From a virus (taxonomy: Duplodnaviria > Caudoviricetes): a stretch of DNA of 29,270 nucleotides. The position numbers were made by a program, and so were the translations under genes. Positions 18,999 to 29,270 of this stretch are shown piece after piece (the first letter of the stretch is position 1; each line of letters opens with the position of its first letter). The DNA is taken from positions 1-29,270 of IMG/VR virus record IMGVR_UViG_3300030061_001980; one strand, 5' to 3'. Below the pieces are notes generated by a model. It was not told where the DNA came from. It made no database searches and saw only the letters and a list, made by a program, of their open reading frames with translations.

Positions 18999-20343
18999 CC
19001 TCTGTCCAAATATTGTTTACACCAGGGTTTATCTCTGCCCATGCAGTAATATTAGGGCTTCCAACGGATGATGTAAATTGTATGCCTGTAACATCTACAA
19101 TTGAACTACCTACTGCTGTAACAGAACCGACTGAACTTGTTAATTGAAGACCTCCTACACCTATTATTTGACCTGGAATTTCATCATGTTGACCGAGTGA
19201 CATCGCTAACTGTTGTCCAGTAACAGGTTCAATAGTAGTTTGTTGAAGGGTAATTGTGCCTATAGTTGATGTTAGCTGTATACCAGTTACATCCACAGGT
19301 GTTTTTAAACCTCCTGCAGCATTTCCTACTTGAGAAGTTATCGAACCTGCACTTGTTACTGTAACATTTGCATCTGCTTCAAAACTTACAGAACCCATTG
19401 TAAAATCTAATTGATCTTCTGCAGGTAAAACAACTATTCCAAAATCTCCAACTAATGAAATTATTCCTTGTGTAGATGTTAAAGAAGAACCTGTAACACT
19501 GACGGTTACATCAGTAAATCCTGCTTCTTCCCCAATTGATGATGTTAATGTTTGTCCTGTTAAAGCAACTGAATAATTAACACCCCATGCAAATTCTCCC
19601 CATGCTGCTCTTCCCCAACCTTCTCCTGTTAGTGTAGATTCATCTACTGTTGCAGCTCCAATAGATGAGGACATTGAAACTCCAGAAGTGATTGCACCAA
19701 TACCTACAAGAGTTTGTCCAACTGCCATAGACTCTAAACTTCCTGTTACTGAGACTAAAGCTGAAGTACCTCCAACTGGAGTACCTATAGAAGAAGTTAG
19801 TTGTTGTCCAACTGCAGTTACTTGATGATCAATGACGTGAGTTTCATTTCCAATAGTTGATGTTAATGATATTCCTGTTACCGATACATCAACGTGACCT
19901 TGGTCTCCCCAAACACCATTACCCCAAGATAATCCACCCCAAACATTTGATTCAATATCAAATATTCCACCCATGCCAATACCATGAACATAACAAAGAT
20001 AATAAAAATCAGTTGCTGATGATGGTGTTACTTCTACATAACGAGTAGTAGCAGCATTAAAGGTTGTTGTGTTTACGTAGTTTGCATAGTTAGAGGCACC
20101 ATCTAAATAATATGTTACCCCTGATGTAAGGTATTGATCTCTGCTTGTAGTTGTAGAAAAAATTAATGGGTGATTGTCATTTGATGAAGCACTTTGTTCA
20201 AATCTTAGAGTTCCACCTTGAACCCAATTTACAGTTCCAGGACCAGTTGAATTTCTAGCACCGTTTAAATAATAAACATTACCAGTCCCACCACCGTATA
20301 GGTTTCCTGAAGCTACGGTTACTGTATAAGTATACTCTGCCAT
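18982..20343 (-). CDS. Tail/fibre structural protein with N-terminal cupredoxin-like domain
   Basis: HPLIF and YYLCYVHGIGMGG motifs, WG-rich segments, and repeated V.VTG..LTS..G units. Confidence 0.65.
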   Translation of the reverse strand: MAEYTYTVTVASGNLYGGGTGNVYYLNGARNSTGPGTVNWVQGGTLRFEQSASSNDNHPLIFSTTTSRDQYLTSGVTYYLDGASNYANYVNTTTFNAATTRYVEVTPSSATDFYYLCYVHGIGMGGIFDIESNVWGGLSWGNGVWGDQGHVDVSVTGISLTSTIGNETHVIDHQVTAVGQQLTSSIGTPVGGTSALVSVTGSLESMAVGQTLVGIGAITSGVSMSSSIGAATVDESTLTGEGWGRAAWGEFAWGVNYSVALTGQTLTSSIGEEAGFTDVTVSVTGSSLTSTQGIISLVGDFGIVVLPAEDQLDFTMGSVSFEADANVTVTSAGSITSQVGNAAGGLKTPVDVTGIQLTSTIGTITLQQTTIEPVTGQQLAMSLGQHDEIPGQIIGVGGLQLTSSVGSVTAVGSSIVDVTGIQFTSSVGSPNITAWAEINPGVNNIWTEVDRAA

Positions 20344-20360
20344 AGCTCCAGGACCTTAAA

Positions 20361-20804
20361 TTATGCTAATCTTAATATAGCTGCCGAAGTTGTGAAAGCT
20401 GGGAACTGAATAGTAAATGTTCCAGAAGTTGCAGTCTTGTCACCACCAAAATCTAATACAGCAACTGCATCAGTAGTATTTGAACCACCGTTTGTAGTTG
20501 TGTTATAAATTAAAGCACCTCTTGCAGTAAGAGTTACGTTTTGAAAACTTAAATCAGCAAAATCAGTAATAGCTACTGAAGATGAAACTTTTACACCTTG
20601 GTTTACTAAAGCACTTCCACCAGCTGAATAGTTTGATGAAGATACTTCATTTGCAGTTGCATAGTTTGTTGTTGATTTTCCTAAAGTTGCCGAACTTGTG
20701 TACATCGCTAATTTGTATGTATCAGTTGATGCATCAAAATCGTGACTTCCTTGTAGTAATTCTTTTTTAAAAGAATCACAGATTGCGTTTGTTGTTATTG
20801 CCAT
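20361..20804 (-). CDS. Tail structural protein
   Basis: SFKKELL.G.HDF...YKLAMY, YSAGG..L, ARGALIYN and LDFGGDKT, in the tail-gene context. Confidence 0.65.
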   Translation of the reverse strand: MAITTNAICDSFKKELLQGSHDFDASTDTYKLAMYTSSATLGKSTTNYATANEVSSSNYSAGGSALVNQGVKVSSSVAITDFADLSFQNVTLTARGALIYNTTTNGGSNTTDAVAVLDFGGDKTATSGTFTIQFPAFTTSAAILRLA

Positions 20805-20822
20805 AATTATTCTCCTTTAAAA

Positions 20823-21500
20823 TTATTGGTTTGGAGAAGGAGAAGGTACTACCACTCTAGGTACACCGTCATCAAACTCCCCTCGTCTTCTTCTACCCAT
20901 TTGTTGTAGGGCAAAATTCTGTACCTCTTCAGTATACTTTGTTTGATATAGATTGTATAGATTGTCTGGTCCTTTTAAAAATCTAAATGCTTCTGCTAAT
21001 ACTCCATGCAATAGCATAGATTCTTGATGTTGAGATAAATAAGTATTATTTGTACTGGTAAAATTAGGTGGATCTTTTACATAATTTATTTGAACAGTTG
21101 AAGCACTTCCTGGAGTTGGTGCTACTAAAATAATATTACCTGTTTGAACATTATCCTCCCAATTAGCATAATATTTTGGTGTACCAGTTGTTGAATCATT
21201 TGGTGCAAATTCTGAAATAAAACTAGTATCTCTTTTTTCTAAAAATGTTCTGTTATTAGATCCATCTATAACTTGAACAGATCTAATTATTAAAGCATCA
21301 GATGGTAAAGAAACATATCTATTATTAGCAGTAAAAGTTGAAGTAGCATATTTTCTTAAATCATCATAATCTACTCTACCAGCAATATCTAATTCAATAT
21401 TTCTAATAAAATCTTGAATAATAGCATCGGTTAAAACATTACTACTTACTTCAGTATAATTTCTTACTTGTGTTAAAAAATTTGAATGAGTTATTGCCAT
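20823..21500 (-). CDS. Head-tail adaptor/tail tubular A-like protein
   Basis: FIRNIE...YVSLPSD...GTPKYY...VAPTP...Y...LLHG.L.EA. AGGAG RBS for the next gene downstream. Confidence 0.65.
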   Translation of the reverse strand: MAITHSNFLTQVRNYTEVSSNVLTDAIIQDFIRNIELDIAGRVDYDDLRKYATSTFTANNRYVSLPSDALIIRSVQVIDGSNNRTFLEKRDTSFISEFAPNDSTTGTPKYYANWEDNVQTGNIILVAPTPGSASTVQINYVKDPPNFTSTNNTYLSQHQESMLLHGVLAEAFRFLKGPDNLYNLYQTKYTEEVQNFALQQMGRRRRGEFDDGVPRVVVPSPSPNQ

Positions 21501-21937
21501 TATGTAATACTAACCTCTACAGAACCCATTATTGATATAAGTTCTCTTCTTCTATTTTGTAATGATGGATCTTCTGGAACCATACTGTGAATTGTTGTTG
21601 TAATTCCATTTGATGTAACATTAAAGTCTTGTGTTTTAAAAGCAAAATCTCCTGGTAATGATAAATTAGCAACTCCAACATGAATACCACCAGAATCTGA
21701 AATAGTTTGATCATTTGAAAATTCTTGAGTTGGTTGTTGGAATTTCATCACTCTTGGATTTCTTAAAGCTATAGCATCTGCTTTATGATATGGTGGATCA
21801 AGTTGTGGATGTTTTGGTTCGTACTCAGATATATGTACTAATGATCCATTCCATTCTTTGACCATTTCTTTGTAAGGAAACGCTTGTCCAGATCTATCAG
21901 AAATAGCTTTTGATCTTTTACCTGTTGCAAATGACAT
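21500..21937 (-). CDS. Conserved head-completion-region hypothetical protein
   Basis: AISDRSG..FPY.EM.KEWNG...EYEPKHPQ, with 1-nt overlaps to both neighbours. Confidence 0.65.
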   Translation of the reverse strand: MSFATGKRSKAISDRSGQAFPYKEMVKEWNGSLVHISEYEPKHPQLDPPYHKADAIALRNPRVMKFQQPTQEFSNDQTISDSGGIHVGVANLSLPGDFAFKTQDFNVTSNGITTTIHSMVPEDPSLQNRRRELISIMGSVEVSIT

Positions 21938-22632
21938 TATACTCCGTCTCCAAAATATGTTTGAGGTGAAATATAAACAGAAGCTCTTTGACCGTCTTCA
22001 TTTAAAGCTCTAAGTAATTCATCTTCATATAATTGTTTTAATATTTGTATTCTATCTGGTGCTCTTTTTATTGATAAATAATATGCAAGACCAGAACACA
22101 TACATGGTAAAAATCTATACGCTACATCTGCTTGATTTGAATATACTCCAGCGTCTTCAATTCTATTTATAGTATAAAATTTTAATGTAGTGTAAGTAGT
22201 TGCATCTGGTGCAAGATATAAACTTATAGTTGGTGTTGTTTGTCTATCAACAAAATACTGAGAAGGTTGTCCTGTTTGTAATTTATTTGGAAGTGCAGCA
22301 TAAGCAGATCTATCAATTTTAGTTAATGCAATATCATTTGTTGATGAAGCATTTCCTGCTGCATTTGTCGTAGAGATGTATGCTTCTAAAACATCATTTA
22401 CATTAGCATCTACTGTATATGTAGCTGTGCCTGCAACTAAGGCTTTTTCGTTTAATTCAACTTTCCAAAGATGTACACCTCTGTTTCCCCACTCTGAAAA
22501 TAAAAGATTTAAACTTCTTCTTGCACTACGTAAGTCATTTCCACTATTAGTCCGCATACCACATCGTTCATATGCTTCTTCAATAATATCATCGATATTT
22601 AAATCGAATGTTGTAGTTCCTGACGTAGCCAT
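21937..22632 (-). CDS. Head-tail adaptor/tail tubular A-like protein
   Basis: DIIEEAYERCG, ARRSLNLLFSEW.NRG, GQPSQYF, LYLAPD and GLAYYL motifs. Confidence 0.65.
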   Translation of the reverse strand: MATSGTTTFDLNIDDIIEEAYERCGMRTNSGNDLRSARRSLNLLFSEWGNRGVHLWKVELNEKALVAGTATYTVDANVNDVLEAYISTTNAAGNASSTNDIALTKIDRSAYAALPNKLQTGQPSQYFVDRQTTPTISLYLAPDATTYTTLKFYTINRIEDAGVYSNQADVAYRFLPCMCSGLAYYLSIKRAPDRIQILKQLYEDELLRALNEDGQRASVYISPQTYFGDGV

Positions 22633-22638
22633 AATTCA

Positions 22639-22860
22639 TTACATTATGTCTTTGTAATAATCCAAAGACTTTCCTGGTATTAAGTTTTCATCTTGAAGGC
22701 CTTCACCTTGAGTTCTGGCTGCACCATAACCTTTAGCTTCATCACCTTTATAAGCTTTCATCATCTTACCTGATTTAGCCTGCATCATCTTAAAATCTTC
22801 ACCAGATATTTTACCATCTTTGTTTTTATCTAATTTTACTTGATCACCTTTTAATGCCAT
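22639..22860 (-). CDS. Small EF-hand (Ca-binding loop) protein
   Basis: LDKNKDGKISGEDF matches the DxNxDGxIxxxD loop. AGGAG RBS. Confidence 0.75.
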   Translation of the reverse strand: MALKGDQVKLDKNKDGKISGEDFKMMQAKSGKMMKAYKGDEAKGYGAARTQGEGLQDENLIPGKSLDYYKDIM

Positions 22861-22878
22861 AATTTTCTCCTTAAAATA

Positions 22879-23148
22879 TTATACGTCTATCATACCACCA
22901 TAGTATCTCTTGGTAAAGGTACTGACGTTTGTTGGTTTGCCTCCAGTATTACCGGCTTGTCTCTTTCTTGCAACAGCAGAACGCTTTTGCGAGTCTGTCA
23001 TTCGGGCGGCTTTTGCAGCAGGCACGCATTTGGGGTATTTTCTTTTTGATCCACTTGCAGATTTTCTTCCACATTTTTTATATCCTCCCCCTTTTTTAGG
23101 TGATCCTATATCAACCCATTTTTCATTGAACCATTTTTTAAGACTCAT
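22879..23148 (-). CDS. Basic small protein (89 aa)
   Basis: Probable start MSLKKWFNEKWVDI at the TAATG overlap, with C..R..YPKCVP and K/R-rich composition. Confidence 0.7.
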   Translation of the reverse strand: MSLKKWFNEKWVDIGSPKKGGGYKKCGRKSASGSKRKYPKCVPAAKAARMTDSQKRSAVARKRQAGNTGGKPTNVSTFTKRYYGGMIDV

Positions 23149-23636
23149 TAAAATACGCCTTTGAAACCTTTGCCTCTTATCGCTGCTCCTGATCCACGTA
23201 CCTCGCCACCACACATCATTTTATTTGCAGAGGAGCCAGTCATGTTTGTTGTTGTATCTATTTGTAAGCCTCTAGGTAAATCTTCTAATCTATTGTCGTA
23301 TTTATCTCTTGCCTTCTTTTTCTTTTTTTTCTTAGCACCCATGTCTTTTCCACCACCATATTTAAGCTTCAGAGTGCTTAAAGTTTCTGCTTGTGCAGCA
23401 TGTGTTTTAGATGCTTTTTTTAAACCTTTTATTACTTCATTTACTTTTACTTTAGTTTCTCCACCAAGTTTTTTACCTGCTGGTTTGGGTCCTTTAAAAT
23501 CTTTTCTTTTTACACCCGATGGATCTTTGATTTTACCAGCACAAATTTTACTTGCGTATGCATTTGCATATGCGCTGGGGTAAACACGAAATTTTCTTTT
23601 AGCAGCAGCTTTGCCTCTTGCACATAATTTAGTCAT
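23148..23636 (-). CDS. Lys-rich basic protein
   Basis: CARGKAAAKRKFRVYPSAYANAYASKIC and C-terminal RGSGAAIRGKGFKGVF. Confidence 0.75.
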   Translation of the reverse strand: MTKLCARGKAAAKRKFRVYPSAYANAYASKICAGKIKDPSGVKRKDFKGPKPAGKKLGGETKVKVNEVIKGLKKASKTHAAQAETLSTLKLKYGGGKDMGAKKKKKKKARDKYDNRLEDLPRGLQIDTTTNMTGSSANKMMCGGEVRGSGAAIRGKGFKGVF

Positions 23637-23642
23637 GCAAGA

Positions 23643-23671
23643 ATTATATCATTTTTTAATTAAACAGTAAA
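23643..23671 (-). promoter_or_regulatory. Extended -10 promoter, probably leaderless
   Basis: TTTACT (23666-23671), 17 nt spacer ending in TGA, TATAAT (23643-23648), then 6 nt to the ATG at 23636. Confidence 0.65.
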
Positions 23672-23803
23672 CGTCTTGGCTAATGGGTTTTTCTTCTTTT
23701 TTTTAATAGATAACTTAACTCTTTTCTTTTTTTCTTTTTCATCTCTTGCACCTCTTAATTTACCATCAATTTGTGCAGGAATTTGTCCTCTAGTTATTGT
23801 CAT
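23660..23803 (-). CDS. Basic 47-aa protein, not in the ORF track
   Basis: MTITRGQIPAQIDGKLRGARDEKEKKKRVKLSIKKKKKNPLAKTFTV, with a TAATG overlap to the peptidase stop. Confidence 0.6.
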   Translation of the reverse strand: MTITRGQIPAQIDGKLRGARDEKEKKKRVKLSIKKKKKNPLAKTFTV

Positions 23804-24279
23804 TATAATATATCCTTTGCTTTACCTAGTATTGGTTTATACTTTGTTTTTCCTTCTTGTCTATAAGCTAATAAGTATTGTTCTCTTCTATTTTCAGGAA
23901 TCCAACTTGCGTGGATCCAGCCCGAGTTGGGTTCTCCAGGAGTGTAGTACTCGAGAATCAATTGATCTGTTTCAAGGTTCTTTTTTACCCAATCAGCTAC
24001 TTCAGCATTATCAACTCCTACACATTCGAAATCACAAGCCTCAGCTTTTGCATGTTGTGAATTTCTAGAGCTGCCAATAGCTAGACATAAATCCTCACTA
24101 CGAAATCCACTAGTCACTTTTACTCTGCCGAAATGGTCTCGTACCGGTTGCAGTATATTTTCACAAAGATCTTTTAATTTTTCTATTTGCCCTGCATTAG
24201 GATTATTATTAATACCCTTCCTAACGGCTGTATCTGATTTTATCAGCTCCAGTAAAGTAAAGTTACGAGATAAGTTCAT
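23803..24279 (-). CDS. Peptidase M15A (Zn D-Ala-D-Ala/L-Ala-D-Glu type), probable endolysin
   Basis: VTSGFRS, SQHAKAEACD (H-x6-D) and WIHAS. Confidence 0.88.
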   Translation of the reverse strand: MNLSRNFTLLELIKSDTAVRKGINNNPNAGQIEKLKDLCENILQPVRDHFGRVKVTSGFRSEDLCLAIGSSRNSQHAKAEACDFECVGVDNAEVADWVKKNLETDQLILEYYTPGEPNSGWIHASWIPENRREQYLLAYRQEGKTKYKPILGKAKDIL

Positions 24280-24285
24280 ATTGAT

Positions 24286-24314
24286 ATTATAATTAAATTT
24301 ATATTAAAATACAA
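24286..24314 (-). promoter_or_regulatory. Sigma70-like promoter, probably leaderless
   Basis: TTGTAT (24309-24314), 17 nt spacer, TATAAT (24286-24291), then 6 nt to the ATG at 24279. Confidence 0.6.
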
Positions 24315-24321
24315 TCCATGG

Positions 24322-24807
24322 TTAATTTTTTTCATAGTAGTTTAAATTTACCACAACTCTTCTTTTTGTATCAGTTTGTGAATATAATGCATGGTATGTA
24401 TCACCTTCCATAATTAATATTTTATTTTTTTTAGGAAAAACTTTTAAATTTTTATCTTTAAAAACAGTAGGTCCATTTGATTCATTAATATATAATATAG
24501 CAGTTTTAAAGTTTTTATAAGGGTAGTCTATATGCCAACCAGTTCTTACAGGATTTTCATTTTGTAAAAATAAATTAGCTCTTACTTGAATTATAGAAGA
24601 ATAATTTAATTTATTTAATATAGGTTTAATTAAATTAAAAGAATTAGAATTTATTCTATCTTCATTAAAAAAAGAATGTGTAAAATATGGAATTTGATCA
24701 GTATATTCAGTACTACCTCTATAATACCATGGAAGTTCTTTTTCTAATAAATAATTCTCTAAATTTAAAAAATCACTCTCATCTAAAAAATTTTCTATAA
24801 CTTTCAC
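24322..24807 (-). CDS. 2OG-Fe(II) oxygenase
   Basis: VRANL, WHID, TAILYINESNGPT, H, and RRVVVNLNY. Confidence 0.85.
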   Translation of the reverse strand: MKVIENFLDESDFLNLENYLLEKELPWYYRGSTEYTDQIPYFTHSFFNEDRINSNSFNLIKPILNKLNYSSIIQVRANLFLQNENPVRTGWHIDYPYKNFKTAILYINESNGPTVFKDKNLKVFPKKNKILIMEGDTYHALYSQTDTKRRVVVNLNYYEKN

Positions 24808-25022
24808 TATTCAATTATTAGCTTTTTTATAGACAAAGATCCATCAATATTTTCTTCTAACTCTGCCTTACCCTTATAGCATTTATAAGATACAGTTTCA
24901 CTGTATTGTCTTTCTGCTGTAAGTTTACCACGTATACATTTTGCCATACCTTCAGGTTGATAACGAGCTTCTTTAATTTCTCCGTTTACAAACATAAGAA
25001 GAGCCACCACAGTTTCAATCAT
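24807..25022 (-). CDS. Hypothetical protein (71 aa, two Cys)
   Basis: Hydrophobic N-terminus, with coupled overlaps on both sides. Confidence 0.7.
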   Translation of the reverse strand: MIETVVALLMFVNGEIKEARYQPEGMAKCIRGKLTAERQYSETVSYKCYKGKAELEENIDGSLSIKKLIIE

Positions 25023-25095
25023 ATTTTCTTACCTGTATTAATATAGCCATCACAATAACTGTAAATATAATACCTATAAAAAATAAACCTATCAT
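25015..25095 (-). CDS. 26-aa single-TM microprotein, not in the ORF track
   Basis: MIGLFFIGIIFTVIVMAILIQVRKYD, with an ATGA overlap upstream and an ATGATTGA overlap downstream. Confidence 0.55.
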   Translation of the reverse strand: MIGLFFIGIIFTVIVMAILIQVRKYD

Positions 25096-25514
25096 TGACC
25101 ATTTCCATTCTTGTAATGCATGTCTCTAGCTTTATCTTTTAATGACTCAATATCTTCTAAAACTTTATCCATTTGTTTTGTTAAAAATTCTATGTTGACT
25201 TTGTTTAGTGCCATACTATCTATGTGTTCAGATAACTTATCCGTAGTTTTGTACAAATCTTCCAGCATCATGTACTGCTCGGAATCTGCAGGAAGCGAAC
25301 CAAGTTGACCCCGTGGCCATTTGATTCTAAACTCTGTATTTTCTTCTAAGTCCTTCTCCATTATTTGTAACCTGGTGTCTGCAACATTAAGACGTTCTAT
25401 AATCTGGAAATAACCCATAGTGCCGAGTGCTACGATTACGATCAAGCTAGCAACCGTCTTCATAGGCATCTGCACGGCAGCCGATTCAGATATGTTTAAT
25501 GGTTTATTGCTCAT
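25092..25514 (-). CDS. Membrane-anchored coiled-coil protein
   Basis: TM segment VASLIVIVALGTMGYF followed by heptad-rich sequence. Probable start MSNKPL. Confidence 0.7.
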   Translation of the reverse strand: MSNKPLNISESAAVQMPMKTVASLIVIVALGTMGYFQIIERLNVADTRLQIMEKDLEENTEFRIKWPRGQLGSLPADSEQYMMLEDLYKTTDKLSEHIDSMALNKVNIEFLTKQMDKVLEDIESLKDKARDMHYKNGNGQ

Positions 25515-26073
25515 TTGTAGGTTCTGGTAATTCAAAATCTTTTGGAGGTAGCATTATGTTTTTTGTGCCCATAAATTTTTTATTTTTATGTTCAGGTAGG
25601 TTTTGATAATCGTCTCTTAGATCATCCCAAGCACTACCGTCTGGTGCTTCTTGTTTATCATCATTAATAATTATACCAGAGCATTTTGCTACAAGCAAAT
25701 GGAAGTTAGGGTTGTATTTTAATGTAGGGTTTCTGTTAACTTTTCCACACATTTTCATCAATTCTAATTGTTGTTTTAGTTCCATATTTTCTTGTTGAAC
25801 ATCTTTAAATCTATTGGTGCAAGCTGATCCTAAATAATGTCTATAAGTCAAACGTATGGACCTATCGTCAGAAGGGCTATTATAATTATTATCAGGATTA
25901 TAGTGTCTATACCTAGACTCCGAGTCCCTCTGTTCGATTGATATGCTAACATCACCAGTGCTACAAGTATTAGTACCGTTATTGAGATAGTCATTTCTAC
26001 TGTGTGCAGGTTTCATAAAACATAACATAATTAATGCACCTGTAAAATAATAATTCATCCTGGCGATCTCCAT
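25504..26073 (-). CDS. Putative exported Cys-containing protein
   Basis: Signal-like GALIMLCFMKPAHS (AxS cleavage-like), four further Cys and a short coiled coil. Confidence 0.65.
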   Translation of the reverse strand: MEIARMNYYFTGALIMLCFMKPAHSRNDYLNNGTNTCSTGDVSISIEQRDSESRYRHYNPDNNYNSPSDDRSIRLTYRHYLGSACTNRFKDVQQENMELKQQLELMKMCGKVNRNPTLKYNPNFHLLVAKCSGIIINDDKQEAPDGSAWDDLRDDYQNLPEHKNKKFMGTKNIMLPPKDFELPEPTNEQ

Positions 26074-26086
26074 GTTGCATAAATCC

Positions 26087-26398
26087 TTAATAATTCATTT
26101 CTCTATTTAAATCTTTTATATCGTAAGTGTGTTCTCTAACTTGATCAGCTAAAGTTCTATATAAATTTTCTGCCATCTGCCATGTAGCTTCAGCAGAAGA
26201 TAATCTTGTATTAATGTCTGTAATATTTTTTTCGGCTACTTCTAAATCTCTTTGTAGATTTGTAATAGCTAATTGATTAGAATTAATAGTGTCTGTAAGA
26301 TTAACAATATAACGTACTCCTGTAAATGTCCCGACTAATACGGAAGCTACCACAGGTACCATTACTATATTTTTCTTTAACAGATCTACTAAATTCAT
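26087..26398 (-). CDS. Membrane-anchored coiled-coil protein
   Basis: TM segment IVMVPVVASVLVGTFTGV followed by a long heptad pattern. Confidence 0.7.
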   Translation of the reverse strand: MNLVDLLKKNIVMVPVVASVLVGTFTGVRYIVNLTDTINSNQLAITNLQRDLEVAEKNITDINTRLSSAEATWQMAENLYRTLADQVREHTYDIKDLNREMNY

Positions 26399-26499
26399 TT
26401 TTTCTTTCTTTTAAATATATTATCAATCCAACTAGCTGCTTTGTCTAGTGCACCAAAAAAATTATAAATCCACTTATCTATCACTTTTTTTACCGTCAT
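26395..26499 (-). CDS. Small amphipathic peptide (about 34 aa)
   Basis: MTVKKVIDKWIYNFFGALDKAASWIDNIFKRKKK, with an ATGA overlap to the next gene. The start is uncertain. Confidence 0.5.
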   Translation of the reverse strand: MTVKKVIDKWIYNFFGALDKAASWIDNIFKRKKK

Positions 26500-27265
26500 T
26501 TTCAAAAGACATATCATGAGCATATTCTTTGTACTTTTCATAAGTTCTTTTTTCAGCTTTTTCTTCTTCTTCATACATTTTTTTTTCTTCTTCATAACCT
26601 TCCATTAACATTTCGCTTAAGGTTTGTTCTTTTTTTTCCATTTCGTAGAACATTTTATCACTGTCTTCTGTAACCAATCCGTTGTCTTCCGCATCCCAAT
26701 ATGTAGTTTGAACTTTATAGTCTGGCCAACTGTTATCAGTAGTATAACTATTAATGTGCCACAAAATACGATTATTAGGCTGAGCTGCATAATTACCGTT
26801 AGCAAGAGCCAATATATGTGCACACTTATGTTCTTGAGGAATTTCAGAATGTTCAACATCTAAAATATTAACATCTGGGTGGCCCCAGTCAATTGTGAAT
26901 AGATATTCACCATGATAAAATTTTTTATCTAAACCTAAATATTTACCCTTTACACCAGCCAACCAATCAAACTTATGAACACTAGGCCAATAACTAAAAC
27001 AGTTCCACAATTCCAACTCGTGCGTCTGCATATTCGGCACATCGGCTCTATCATGTGATTTTTGGAAAAACGCTGAGATAGGCAAACGCCAAAAGCATGC
27101 ACCATTTGGTAACATGATATTGAATAAGATTGCACGACCTGATATGGATGTAAGGCCGAAGATAACACATTCTTCACTTTCTCCGTGATGTTTTTTAAGA
27201 TCATATAAATACTCCTTTTTTACTTTACAATATATAGGTGGTATATTAGCATTTAGGTAAGACAT
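26474..27265 (-). CDS. Conserved phage hypothetical protein with charged C-terminal tail
   Basis: YLNANIP, RLPISAF, LWNCFS, YLFTIDW, EHKC.H and QPNNR motifs. Confidence 0.75.
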   Translation of the reverse strand: MSYLNANIPPIYCKVKKEYLYDLKKHHGESEECVIFGLTSISGRAILFNIMLPNGACFWRLPISAFFQKSHDRADVPNMQTHELELWNCFSYWPSVHKFDWLAGVKGKYLGLDKKFYHGEYLFTIDWGHPDVNILDVEHSEIPQEHKCAHILALANGNYAAQPNNRILWHINSYTTDNSWPDYKVQTTYWDAEDNGLVTEDSDKMFYEMEKKEQTLSEMLMEGYEEEKKMYEEEEKAEKRTYEKYKEYAHDMSFENDGKKSDR

Positions 27266-27268
27266 AGT

Positions 27269-27577
27269 CTAACACTTCCATCTACGTCTCGCTTGTCTTA
27301 TTCTTGAATTAGGATCTTTAGCTGCTTTTGGAAATTTTTTCATTTGTCCTAACGATCTTGCACAATATGATTTTCTTCTAGCTGCTCTTTTCTTACCTGG
27401 ATTATCTTCTGTAACTGCAGTTTTTAATTTGCTTCCAGGATTTTTTCTTCTGTAAGCCATTACTCCAGCTTGAGTCATTCCCGCTCCACTTTTTGTAGAA
27501 CGGAAATTCTTTTTATTTCTAGGTGGCATTCCACCTTTTTTTAATTCGATTATATCAGCGTAATAATCTAAATTCAT
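27269..27577 (-). CDS. Basic small protein
   Basis: GAGMT.AGV.AYRRKNPGSKL...RRKSYCARS.G...RRRWKC, very K/R-rich. Confidence 0.75.
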   Translation of the reverse strand: MNLDYYADIIELKKGGMPPRNKKNFRSTKSGAGMTQAGVMAYRRKNPGSKLKTAVTEDNPGKKRAARRKSYCARSLGQMKKFPKAAKDPNSRIRQARRRWKC

Positions 27578-27578
27578 T

Positions 27579-27866
27579 TTAAGTAAATGAAATAGTTACA
27601 CCACCAGTGCCAGCAATAGTTGCATGAATACCATCTGCAAAAAATATTCCATTTCCTGGTAAGTAAATATCTAAACCCTCAGTTCCAAAAAGATAAGTTG
27701 CAATAACATCTCCTGAACCACCTCCAGATCTAAATATAATTGAGCCACTAGCATTTCCTTTAGCTTGAATAGAAGTTAATCTTGCTCTTCCTCCTACGGC
27801 TACCATTTGAGTTGTAGAAGTTGCATGTGCACTCGACTGGTCTGATGAAAAACTTGATCCACCCAT
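27579..27866 (-). CDS. Small beta-rich virion protein
   Basis: 95 aa with an AGGAG RBS and the IYLPGNGIFFADGIHA motif, two genes after the capsid. Confidence 0.65.
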   Translation of the reverse strand: MGGSSFSSDQSSAHATSTTQMVAVGGRARLTSIQAKGNASGSIIFRSGGGSGDVIATYLFGTEGLDIYLPGNGIFFADGIHATIAGTGGVTISFT

Positions 27867-27883
27867 AATTTTCTCCTTTAGTT

Positions 27884-27903
27884 GTGGCTCCAGAAGGAGC
27901 CAC
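27884..27903 (-). other. Intergenic stem-loop without U tract
   Basis: GTGGCTCC-TTCT-GGAGCCAC, a perfect 8-bp stem just before the RBS. Confidence 0.7.
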
Positions 27904-27913
27904 TAATTATTTA

Positions 27914-28459
27914 TTACTGTGCATCAAAAGGTGTTGCAAGTGTTCCATTACCAAGTAACTGACCCTCTACAGCATATAAGTTAGCTGCGATTGCAGTAAA
28001 TTTGATTCTTGAACCTGCTAAACCACCTGTTGTAGCGTTAGATCCACCAGCTTCACCATTAAGGTTAACTTCATTATCATTAGTTGTAACTTGAAATTGT
28101 TTACCAGCTACTGACGCAGTAATACCGACTGTAGCAGCACCAACAAATTTGTCAGCTGTGTTAGCAGTCTTGATAGTTCCTGTGAAATTATCAATAAAAA
28201 GAATTTCAAAAGTTGTACCAATTGTATTTGCATTATTTGGATCACTTCCTGGACCTGCAATAGCAGAATCAGCAGTTGAAACAATTGCAGGTAAAGTTAT
28301 TGCAGTAGGTGTTCCAGTGGGATCCATTGTTACAAGTCTACCTGCGTGATCAGCAACTGTTAAATCTGTTGCTAAAAGTTCTGCTTTAACTGCATTTGGT
28401 CCTAAGTTAATAAAACCATTTTTTGATCGGACTGGTCCGTCAAATGTTGTATTTGCCAT
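27914..28459 (-). CDS. Putative capsid decoration/minor head protein
   Basis: MANTTFDGPVRS..GF, ITLPA and Ala/Thr/Gly-rich. First gene after the MCP, with an AGGAG RBS. Confidence 0.6.
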   Translation of the reverse strand: MANTTFDGPVRSKNGFINLGPNAVKAELLATDLTVADHAGRLVTMDPTGTPTAITLPAIVSTADSAIAGPGSDPNNANTIGTTFEILFIDNFTGTIKTANTADKFVGAATVGITASVAGKQFQVTTNDNEVNLNGEAGGSNATTGGLAGSRIKFTAIAANLYAVEGQLLGNGTLATPFDAQ

Positions 28460-28486
28460 AATATTTTCTCCTTTGTATAGCTTTAA

Positions 28487-28546
28487 ATTTTGTAGTCTCT
28501 ATACCGTCTGCCTAGTCAGTCTACAAAATAATTTATTTTCTAGGTC
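28487..28546 (-). ncRNA. Pseudoknotted structured RNA, probably the Mu-gpT-DE motif
   Basis: CCUAG (28540-28544) pairs with CUAGG (28511-28515), interleaved with AUUUUGUAG (28521-28529) pairing with CUACAAAAU (28487-28495). It lies downstream of a gpT-like capsid gene. Confidence 0.6.
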
Positions 28547-28551
28547 TTTTT

Positions 28552-28580
28552 ATTATACACAAAAAAAGGGGCAGTGTGAA
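28552..28580 (-). promoter_or_regulatory. Sigma70-like promoter embedded in the terminator
   Basis: TTCACA (28575-28580), 17 nt spacer, TATAAT (28552-28557). Confidence 0.65.
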
Positions 28581-28593
28581 CACCGCCCCTTTT
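28561..28593 (-). terminator. Rho-independent terminator after the major capsid gene
   Basis: AAAA-GGGGCGGTG-TTCA-CACTGCCCC-TTTTTTT: a 9-bp stem with one G-U pair and a U7 tail. Confidence 0.88.
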
Positions 28594-28617
28594 AAGTAAT
28601 ACTAATTGTATTATTTA

Positions 28618-29268
28618 TTAACTAGTTGGTAAGTTTCCGTTACCAAAGATTGCTCTAGGATCTGAGAATCCAAAAGAGTATCTTTCTCTAGCTTTAAATC
28701 TTACGTTACCAGTATCGAAGTCACCTTCAATCGCAGTTTTGATTGGTGATCTAACGAAATGTTTCATTCCATTAGGTACATCAGTCATTAGGTAGTACGA
28801 GTCAGTATCAGTTAAGAAATTATTAACTGAGTATCCTTCTGGTACCATACCCATTGAAGCGATTGCGTTGATATCGTTATCAGCTGTTGAAGTTCTCTGA
28901 GGAGACTTCATTAATCTCTCAGCAGTAAATTGTAATTCTTTTGGAATTATCATCTTTCTACCTTGAGTAGCGATTCTTAGACCTCTTTCGTCTACGAATC
29001 CAGCGATGTCGATTAACGACTGCTCTAATGAAGTTTCATTAAGATCTGCAGCTACTGTAAGAACATTTGAAAATGTTCCGCCAGTCGCTAATGGGTGTGC
29101 GTTAGAAATTAACGGTACCCCGTCTCCACCAGTAACAGCAGCGAACTGTGCTTGGTTAAGTACGTTAGCAGCTTTAACTTGCTTCGTGTTTGACATAGAT
29201 CTTGCAAGAGCTCTTGTGTATCTTGCAGCTAATCTGTCATATAGGTTGTCTTCGATTGCTTCTTCAGT
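28618..29268 (-). CDS. Major capsid protein (Mu gpT-like, HK97 fold), 5'-truncated
   Basis: The frame is open to the window edge (TEEAIEDNLYDRLAARYTRALARSM...), with DERGL.I, IIPKELQF.AERL and GDFDTGNVRFKARERYSFG.SDPR. It is followed by a strong terminator. Confidence 0.88.
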   Translation of the reverse strand, partial: TEEAIEDNLYDRLAARYTRALARSMSNTKQVKAANVLNQAQFAAVTGGDGVPLISNAHPLATGGTFSNVLTVAADLNETSLEQSLIDIAGFVDERGLRIATQGRKMIIPKELQFTAERLMKSPQRTSTADNDINAIASMGMVPEGYSVNNFLTDTDSYYLMTDVPNGMKHFVRSPIKTAIEGDFDTGNVRFKARERYSFGFSDPRAIFGNGNLPTS

Positions 29269-29270
29269 GA

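Follow-up and report, generated by a model that had tools for sequence, protein, structure and literature searches.

The RNA motif Mu-gpT-DE (Rfam RF03012) is the closest described relative of the element analysed here. It reportedly originates from Weinberg et al. in 2017; its Rfam model comprises 53 positions and is of the type 'Gene; sRNA'. Flaviviral xrRNAs are built as a three-way junction with the 5' end paired into the fold and a loop paired with a downstream strand. Translational riboswitches combine a compact junction and invariant unpaired nucleotides with a pseudoknot close to the Shine-Dalgarno (SD) sequence. HDV-like ribozymes have a strand order different from that of the RNA described below. 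According to PMC10690425, a pseudoknot in the leader of T4 gene 32 serves translational self-repression; autoregulation of the P22 scaffolding protein appears as a title in a reference list (PMC2115188). For Mu-gpT-DE, CaCoFold gives 11-13 pairs and a pk label, and rows in the supplement of PMC7657543 name RF03012. The element is not mentioned in the available parts of PMC9599517 and PMC10690425, and literature searches yielded neither a function of Mu-gpT-DE nor a description of the long form presented below, which may be among the unnamed candidates of Fremin et al.

The window, i.e. the whole stretch of 29,270 nt that was analysed, covers part of the genome of an HTVC023P-type pelagiphage. 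The 3' part of its major capsid protein gene (28618..29270, minus strand) leaves the window at the right end, and the partial protein is 92.6% identical to the capsid protein of Pelagibacter phage HTVC023P. It matches PF25209 above cut-off, PF10124 (Mu-like gpT) weakly and phrog_371 (major head); in some records the capsid family is labelled Mu-like gpT. The element is located on the minus strand within the 158 nt that separate the capsid stop at 28618 from a 181-aa gene (28459-27914). This gene starts with ATG at 28459 and has the SD sequence AAGGAG (28468..28473, assigned from sequence) with the core AGGAG at 28472-28468, where the earlier note had placed it. An 8-bp GC-rich hairpin lacking a U tail (27903-27884, minus strand) separates the 181-aa gene from the next SD and likely has a role in mRNA stabilisation or processing. 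The post-capsid operon also encodes, on the minus strand, a very basic 102-aa DUF6321 protein (27269-27577) and a 263-aa phrog_3704 protein labelled ferredoxin (26474-27265).

Within the element, a segment of 70 bases is a conserved RNA that is predicted from sequence comparison to fold into a doubly pseudoknotted three-way junction (all coordinates on the minus strand). The junction is built from three GAC strands at 28521-28519, 28508-28506 and 28497-28495, in which G1-C3, C1-G2 and C2-G3 are paired and the three A are unpaired. G1-C3 closes P2, a helix formed by AUUUUGUAG (28521..28529), whose last base is G1, and CUACAAAAU (28487..28495). C1-G2 closes the short P4 hairpin CUG/CAG (28508..28519), and C2-G3 closes the loop of the third arm (28497..28506). 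Both loops are engaged in further pairing: the P4 loop ACUAGG contains CUAGG (28515-28511), which pairs with the 5' end of the RNA, CCUAG (28540..28544), to form P1, and the third loop contributes GUAUAG (28504-28499), which pairs with CUAUAC (28475..28480) beside the SD to form P3, the second pseudoknot. The 3' strand of P3, 21 to 16 nt before the start codon, stops 1 nt short of AAGGAG; P2 ends 14 nt before it. The H-type pseudoknot of the earlier note holds as far as CCUAG 28544-28540/CUAGG 28515-28511 and the 9-bp helix AUUUUGUAG/CUACAAAAU are concerned, which are present and do cross. That there are two helices only does not hold: the 3-bp P4, C2-G3, the three GAC strands and P3 had been omitted, and P3, P4 and C2-G3 covary too.

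The folding energy of the RNA part alone is ordinary (z = -0.7 to -1.5), the nearest-neighbour minimum free energy (MFE) structure has a different core, and the P3 duplex is weak (about -4 kcal/mol). The case for the RNA rests on covariation. Relatives were collected as 80 loci via the 181-aa protein, 80 via the capsid protein, 10 annotated phage records and 119 rows from a junction-pattern scan. Using the gene start and three GAC-like triplets as anchors, with no pairing demanded, 231 of 298 loci with 150 distinct cores were obtained; these anchors fix the GAC-like triplets and part of the N-terminal motif of the downstream protein. P1 and P3 were counted by script because MAFFT misregisters them, leaving out the mis-anchored locus L164. 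P2 and P4 were read from an independent MAFFT alignment of 61 sequences less than 80% identical, picked among cores with perfect P1, 29 of which came from the pattern scan that fixed two P2 pairs at the junction. Paired cells count sequences and not events; there must be at least as many events as there are distinct types.

In the 61 sequences, 96.3% of cells are paired, whereas shuffles reach 67.1% and slid controls 21-45%. Each of the nine P2 pairs varies on both sides. In the anchored cores, P2 positions 2-7 from the junction are paired in 95-100% (43-72% with shuffled partners). The middle pair of P4 is paired in 61/61 with four pair types and changes on both sides. All 5 bp of P1 are matched in 145 of 149 cores with 22 loop types, whereas loops of other types match in 52 of 3129 combinations. 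P3 has at least five Watson-Crick pairs in 139 of 149 cores and comprises 33 different helices (about 5% in the control). Thus, both crossing helices of the earlier note covary, and P1, P2, P3 and the middle pair of P4 do so across HTVC023P-type and related phages. The unpaired A is invariant at all three junction positions (61/61). G1-C3 becomes A-U in 8 of 150 cores and U-A in L076 and L164. As the anchors had fixed C2-G3, this pair was tested by separate scans: U2 combined with A or G at position 3 yielded 120 rows, of which 19 were structured, all 19 with A3 and with three P1 subtypes, and among 119 rows with C2 and non-G3 none was structured. Five gene-linked rows that seemed to carry C2 and non-G3 were register artefacts with a true GAC adjacent in each. 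U1-A2 variants gave no structured case among 105 pattern rows, and C1-G2 is invariant. This means that two of the three junction pairs, G1-C3 and C2-G3, covary; because C1-G2 never varied, the three-fold picture rests on these two pairs and on stacking on P4.

In 137/137 long forms, P3 ends at a distance of -6 to +8 nt relative to the SD core. It overlaps the core in 65; in the other 72, including the window, P3 lies 0-8 nt before it. The long-form model finds a single copy in the window at 72 bits (next-best 17) and detects HTVC023P, HTVC027P, DSL-LC04 and 023Pt_psg01. All four complete genomes that bear the RNA have one copy. About 2000 IMG/VR stretches match one narrow pattern, of which, judging by a sample, roughly four fifths are real; in cellular genomes (2 of 64 parts scanned) none of 120 pattern rows has both P1 and P2. 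A hybrid form with long P1 and P2 and the GCCA loop of the short form facing AUG GC occurs in L128, L138, L190, L193, L208, L224, L248 and L287, loci that by eye have an additional small hairpin able to pair with the SD.

Is this RNA Mu-gpT-DE, as the earlier note assumed? With Rfam covariance models, RF03012 matched the window neither at gathering (49 bits) nor at E values up to 10, and it matched none of 20 long-form loci. It exceeds the cut-off at the same position in Roseobacter phage CRP-902 and L152 (positive controls: L166 72.3 bits, L152 66.7 bits), and matches in three further loci remain below it. Conversely, the long-form model gives 13 bits or less on short forms, i.e. each model misses the other form. 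The RF03012 consensus CCCU-GAC-hairpin-GAC-loop-GAC-AGGAG..AUG has three GAC strands in the pairing frame of the window, and the window RNA is located, like the motif, directly after a gpT-like capsid gene and before the next start. Kinship stands at the level of junction core and position, and membership by score falls: with the same GAC core and no RF03012 match, the window RNA is an elaborated relative. Judged by sequence, it is a variant form of an already catalogued orphan motif. A freshwater-2 match (17 bits, compared with 49.9 needed) was rejected as driven by the SD/AUG tail, and other weak Rfam matches were terminator-driven and below gathering. The covariance models of Rfam ribozymes and riboswitches did not match the window, for ribozymes even at E values up to 10.

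A short-form pattern found 120 rows, 106 with a capsid gene upstream. The third loop of the short form can form at least four Watson-Crick pairs with the start codon in 43 of 46 loop/start combinations, compared with just 12 of 139 P3-bearing long forms. Loops of the type ACC(C/U)A accompany AUG GGU in 4/4, and a GCC(A/G) loop faces AUG GC in 8 of 10 long forms without the usual P3; this loop-to-AUG covariation comprises few events. CaCoFold may already depict this pairing between loop and start codon in the short form. L150 and L151 have the same downstream N-terminus behind another leader, in which two GAC surround a CC-UUCG-GG hairpin and TATTAAC is repeated; this leader is possibly a third form. 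L167 (Synechococcus phage MinM2 record, 1525-1634) has no GAC junction. There, the loop CCGTCTCC of a GC-rich hairpin can pair with the SD region GGAGACGG; this pseudoknot involving the SD occupies the same position and is unrelated.

Upstream of the RNA, the capsid gene is followed by an intrinsic-terminator-like hairpin with a U tail (28557..28593, minus strand). The stem (28593-28564) has 13 pairs, 7 of them G-C, and a 4-nt loop (fold z = -4.9). The loop and the start of the 3' arm carry TTCACA (28575..28580), a predicted -35 box that is in register in relatives, and 17 nt later follows a perfect TATAAT (28552..28557), the predicted -10 box, so that +1 is predicted near 28545. Both boxes are found on the minus strand as the earlier note had described them. 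With 11/12 matches, the pair tops 52 promoter-like sites in window 20000-29270. As shuffled sequence yields 41.6 such sites, a single site is weak evidence, and conservation had to decide. In 145 aligned relatives, the TATAAT consensus is located at -13..-8 relative to the P1 start. Boxes in register are found in 62 of 143 relatives under a strict definition (2% in controls) and in 100 of 143 under a relaxed one (5-6% in controls). The spacer is 17 nt in 57 of the 62 strict sites, 50 of the 62 are nested in the terminator hairpin, and the conserved boxes place the predicted +1 0-2 nt before P1. Hence, the element carries -35 and -10 boxes of the sigma-70 type at 17 nt in a conserved register, and both the boxes and their spacing recur in homologues as the earlier note had anticipated. 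Metatranscriptome contigs from 4/4 sets cover part of the leader, and one spans 28463-28701; such contigs reveal neither strand nor start nor level, could stem from DNA, and were not counted as evidence. In read-through RNA of the window, the -10 region could pair with the 3' strand of P3; this pairing was rejected since, by eye, relatives whose P3 strands differ do not preserve it.

Terminator, promoter and RNA can occur apart from one another. Among the first 80 loci, 21 have a gap of 200-1300 nt between the capsid gene and the downstream gene, with one or two extra genes in 20 of them. In 21/21 gapped loci, several of which are near-duplicates, the hairpin remains behind the capsid gene and the RNA before the downstream gene. 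The RNA lacks a promoter in 17 of 143 relatives. In these, the hairpin is at most 12 nt from P1, a promoter is found in 0/17, and the U tail has a mean of 4.1 compared with 6.8. The promoter occurs without the terminator in L010, L017 and L043; in L017, just the right half of the terminator is left, together with TTCACA-17-TATAAT. In L045, both boxes are present at 17 nt and the stem is gone. In five of five loci without the downstream gene there is no RNA, yet a TTTAC-17-TA promoter is retained in the hairpin. A fusion of terminator, promoter and RNA into one control element, as postulated by the earlier note, is not supported, given the promoters without terminator, the 17 promoterless copies and these five loci. 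Its view that the RNA goes with the downstream gene and is not a capsid 3' UTR is supported, as the RNA stays with its gene (21/21); the separate start is a prediction.

The link between RNA and gene is close. The RNA is present in 65 of 66 capsid-anchored loci that have the gene, the exception being L150. In a complete 63-kb genome without the gene, the long-form model peaks at 18 bits, and four distant phage records have neither the N-terminal motif nor the RNA. When only the junction pattern with two junction-side P2 pairs was fixed, 97 of 119 rows were structured, and 97/97 precede this N-terminus or a close variant (judged by eye), 86 of them with a capsid gene within 900 nt; the other 22 rows have neither structure nor capsid. 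Two types of insertion were observed. In L010, L014, L017, L028, L042, L043, L045 and L083, one or two genes of 155-190 aa that by eye resemble 2OG-Fe(II) oxygenases are located between capsid terminator and leader RNA. Several of them begin 6-8 nt past a TTGCA-17-TA box pair within the terminator and are, because of this short distance, likely leaderless and transcribed from the nested promoter. In L062, L068, L069, L072, L077, L079, L163 (HTVC027P gp60-61) and L165, two short ORFs (about 85-96 and 40-81 aa) are followed by a conserved non-coding inverted repeat GTAGC-TACTTAA-AAAA-GCTAC and then by the leader-RNA promoter.

The 181-aa protein received no family name from Pfam, PHROGs, a PDB sequence search or the Atlas. 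It is predicted by structural modelling to be a homotrimeric capsid spike or decoration protein with a beta-sandwich knob. The monomer model is middling (pLDDT 65), and the fold closest to it is that of the C-terminal knob in gp52, the capsid spike of Pseudomonas phage Pa223 (PDB 9ny6; Z 9.1, rmsd 2.7, 99 aligned; Foldseek E 4e-4; 9% identity). The three-copy prediction scored 0.95 (best control 0.00) with residues 1-24 within the interface, and the trimer runs agree in 92% of contacts (pLDDT 90 or more). Of 30 solved homo-pairs, 20 reached the mark, as did 1 of 23 single chains; the pass may reflect likeness to solved trimers. The Pa223 spike is a homotrimer fixed at three-fold axes through its N-terminal 40 residues (10.1101/2025.06.11.659172). 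The 181-aa protein would share with it the homotrimer, the N-terminal anchoring and the knob fold; it lacks a triple beta-helix. As tailspike and baseplate domains are nearly as close (Z 7.3-8.1), the predicted capsid location also rests on gene position and on one annotation: the positional equivalent in phage DSL-LC04 is named 'cement protein'. The bodies of 139 complete downstream proteins fall into 22 clusters, and the N-terminal module T-T-F-x-G-P-V-R-S alone is common to all. This motif was partly demanded by the anchor; the junction-pattern scan did not demand it. The proteins are acidic (median pI 4.4 for the 139 proteins, 4.5 for that of the window), and the conserved N-terminal module contains one usually basic residue.

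We propose that the RNA is a translational operator that lowers spike synthesis and is read by surplus unassembled trimer, a reading in which ligand and direction of control are proposed and whose chance we put somewhat short of even. Host sigma-70 polymerase would initiate just 5' of P1 at the promoter inside the capsid terminator, as the conserved boxes suggest. The RNA would then be the front end of the post-capsid message; in promoterless relatives, read-through would include it in the transcript. In the transcript, P2, P4 and C2-G3 would make the junction with its three unpaired A, the P4 loop would hold the 5' end in P1, and in P3 the third loop would pair with the translation-initiation region, as covariation indicates. 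Located within the 30S footprint or on SD or AUG, P3 should make the folded state slow for initiation. Being weak, it would open unless stabilised. The stabiliser might, speculatively, be the free spike trimer with its three conserved N-terminal arms, which are normally docked on the capsid. Empty capsid sites might then compete the trimer off the RNA and match spike output to capsid number, a step that is likewise speculative.

The structure is positioned as expected for an operator, at the translation-initiation region of its cognate gene, and in the sequences compared, the third loop or the outer helix always reaches this region. Feedback by free trimer is the best single guess, given that the RNA and the N-terminal module accompany each other and are both three-fold. 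The acidic protein, atypical of RNA binders, argues against it. Further points against an operator are the invariant C1-G2, the MFE in favour of another core, and the L150 gene, which has no clear junction. In the 72 of 137 long forms without P3/SD overlap, window included, repression is uncertain, and the fold might have no effect or enhance translation; as P3 there lies 0-8 nt before the SD core, repression in the window depends on the ribosome footprint. Going further, the RNA might be a pseudo-three-fold mimic of the capsid docking site, each GAC strand meeting one N-terminal arm of the spike trimer; this elaboration is doubtful. If it is true, free trimers shut down their own synthesis until newly made capsids draw them off, the orphan Mu-gpT-DE motif gains a function, and some of the most abundant ocean phages possess a symmetry-matched RNA decoy that counts virion parts.

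Alternatively, a knot that needs no ligand could constitutively set the translation rate and/or keep nucleases away from the 5' end of the post-capsid message, in the manner of an xrRNA or a structured standby site. The nucleotides with which the transcript is predicted to begin are paired in P1, the topology with three-way junction, 5' pairing and downstream pseudoknot resembles that of flaviviral xrRNAs, and the SD core is free in 72/137. However, the short form keeps the GAC core without P1, and the A that are unpaired and invariant at three positions (61/61) exceed the needs of a simple dimmer. Moreover, the RNA is lost with the spike gene while downstream genes and promoter persist, and we consider a ligand-free role unlikely. 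The same operator might instead be opened or closed by the major capsid protein, the procapsid or another late phage protein. Conservation of the neighbourhood concerns the capsid gene (at most 900 nt away in 86/97), and the spike body is swapped among 22 clusters while the RNA core stays unchanged, but no result singles out the capsid protein, and the spike N-terminal module co-occurs equally well, so that such a ligand appears decidedly unlikely. Compact junction, invariant unpaired nucleotides and SD-proximal pseudoknot are also the anatomy of a translational riboswitch, and an aptamer for a metal ion or host metabolite could gate spike translation. Nevertheless, the RNA is seen only before one virion gene of one phage group, in single copy in 4/4 complete genomes, and 0/120 cellular rows combine P1 and P2 (2 of 64 parts), which leaves a riboswitch a slim chance. 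A self-cleaving ribozyme or a free small RNA (e.g. packaged, with a pRNA-like three-way junction) would suit the double pseudoknot, the invariant core and the Rfam type 'Gene; sRNA', and cleavage could create the 5' end in the 17 promoterless copies, but is very improbable, as no ribozyme family matched even at E values up to 10, the strand order is unlike that of HDV-like ribozymes, no terminator separates RNA and gene, and SD or AUG is overlapped in many copies.

With the operator fed back by free trimer as the preferred reading, an orphan RNA becomes a testable cis-regulator whose conserved unit is a three-GAC junction tied to one virion gene. The junction would reach the translation start by three routes: a strand beside the SD, the SD itself or the start codon. 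Although common, the long form escapes Rfam, and it is testable because it is present in the cultured phages HTVC023P and HTVC027P. If the spike trimer reads the RNA, the stoichiometry of capsid to decoration protein is set after transcription.

Among the known systems, Mu-gpT-DE is the nearest, as it precedes the same T-T-F-x-G-P gene after a gpT-like capsid gene. In its short form, a 4-bp P2 includes the SD, P4 is long, P1 is missing and the loop can pair with the start codon. The window form, by contrast, has a 9-bp P2 without the SD, a P4 of 3 bp with its loop paired to the 5' end, and P3 upstream of the SD (in relatives upstream of or on the SD); the outer helix CCUG/CAGG with the SD is not found in the window. 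Flaviviral xrRNAs, for which there was no Rfam match in the window, differ in that the window RNA is a phage leader whose 5' end pairs with a hairpin loop, and whose P1 is missing in the short form. The products of T4 gene 32 and of the P22 scaffolding gene are known or proposed nucleic-acid binders, whereas that of the window is predicted to be an acidic trimer on the virion surface. No kinship in sequence or structure with these two systems is apparent, and the likeness is one of arrangement: a phage leader structure at the translation start and feedback by the unassembled product, here proposed for the spike.
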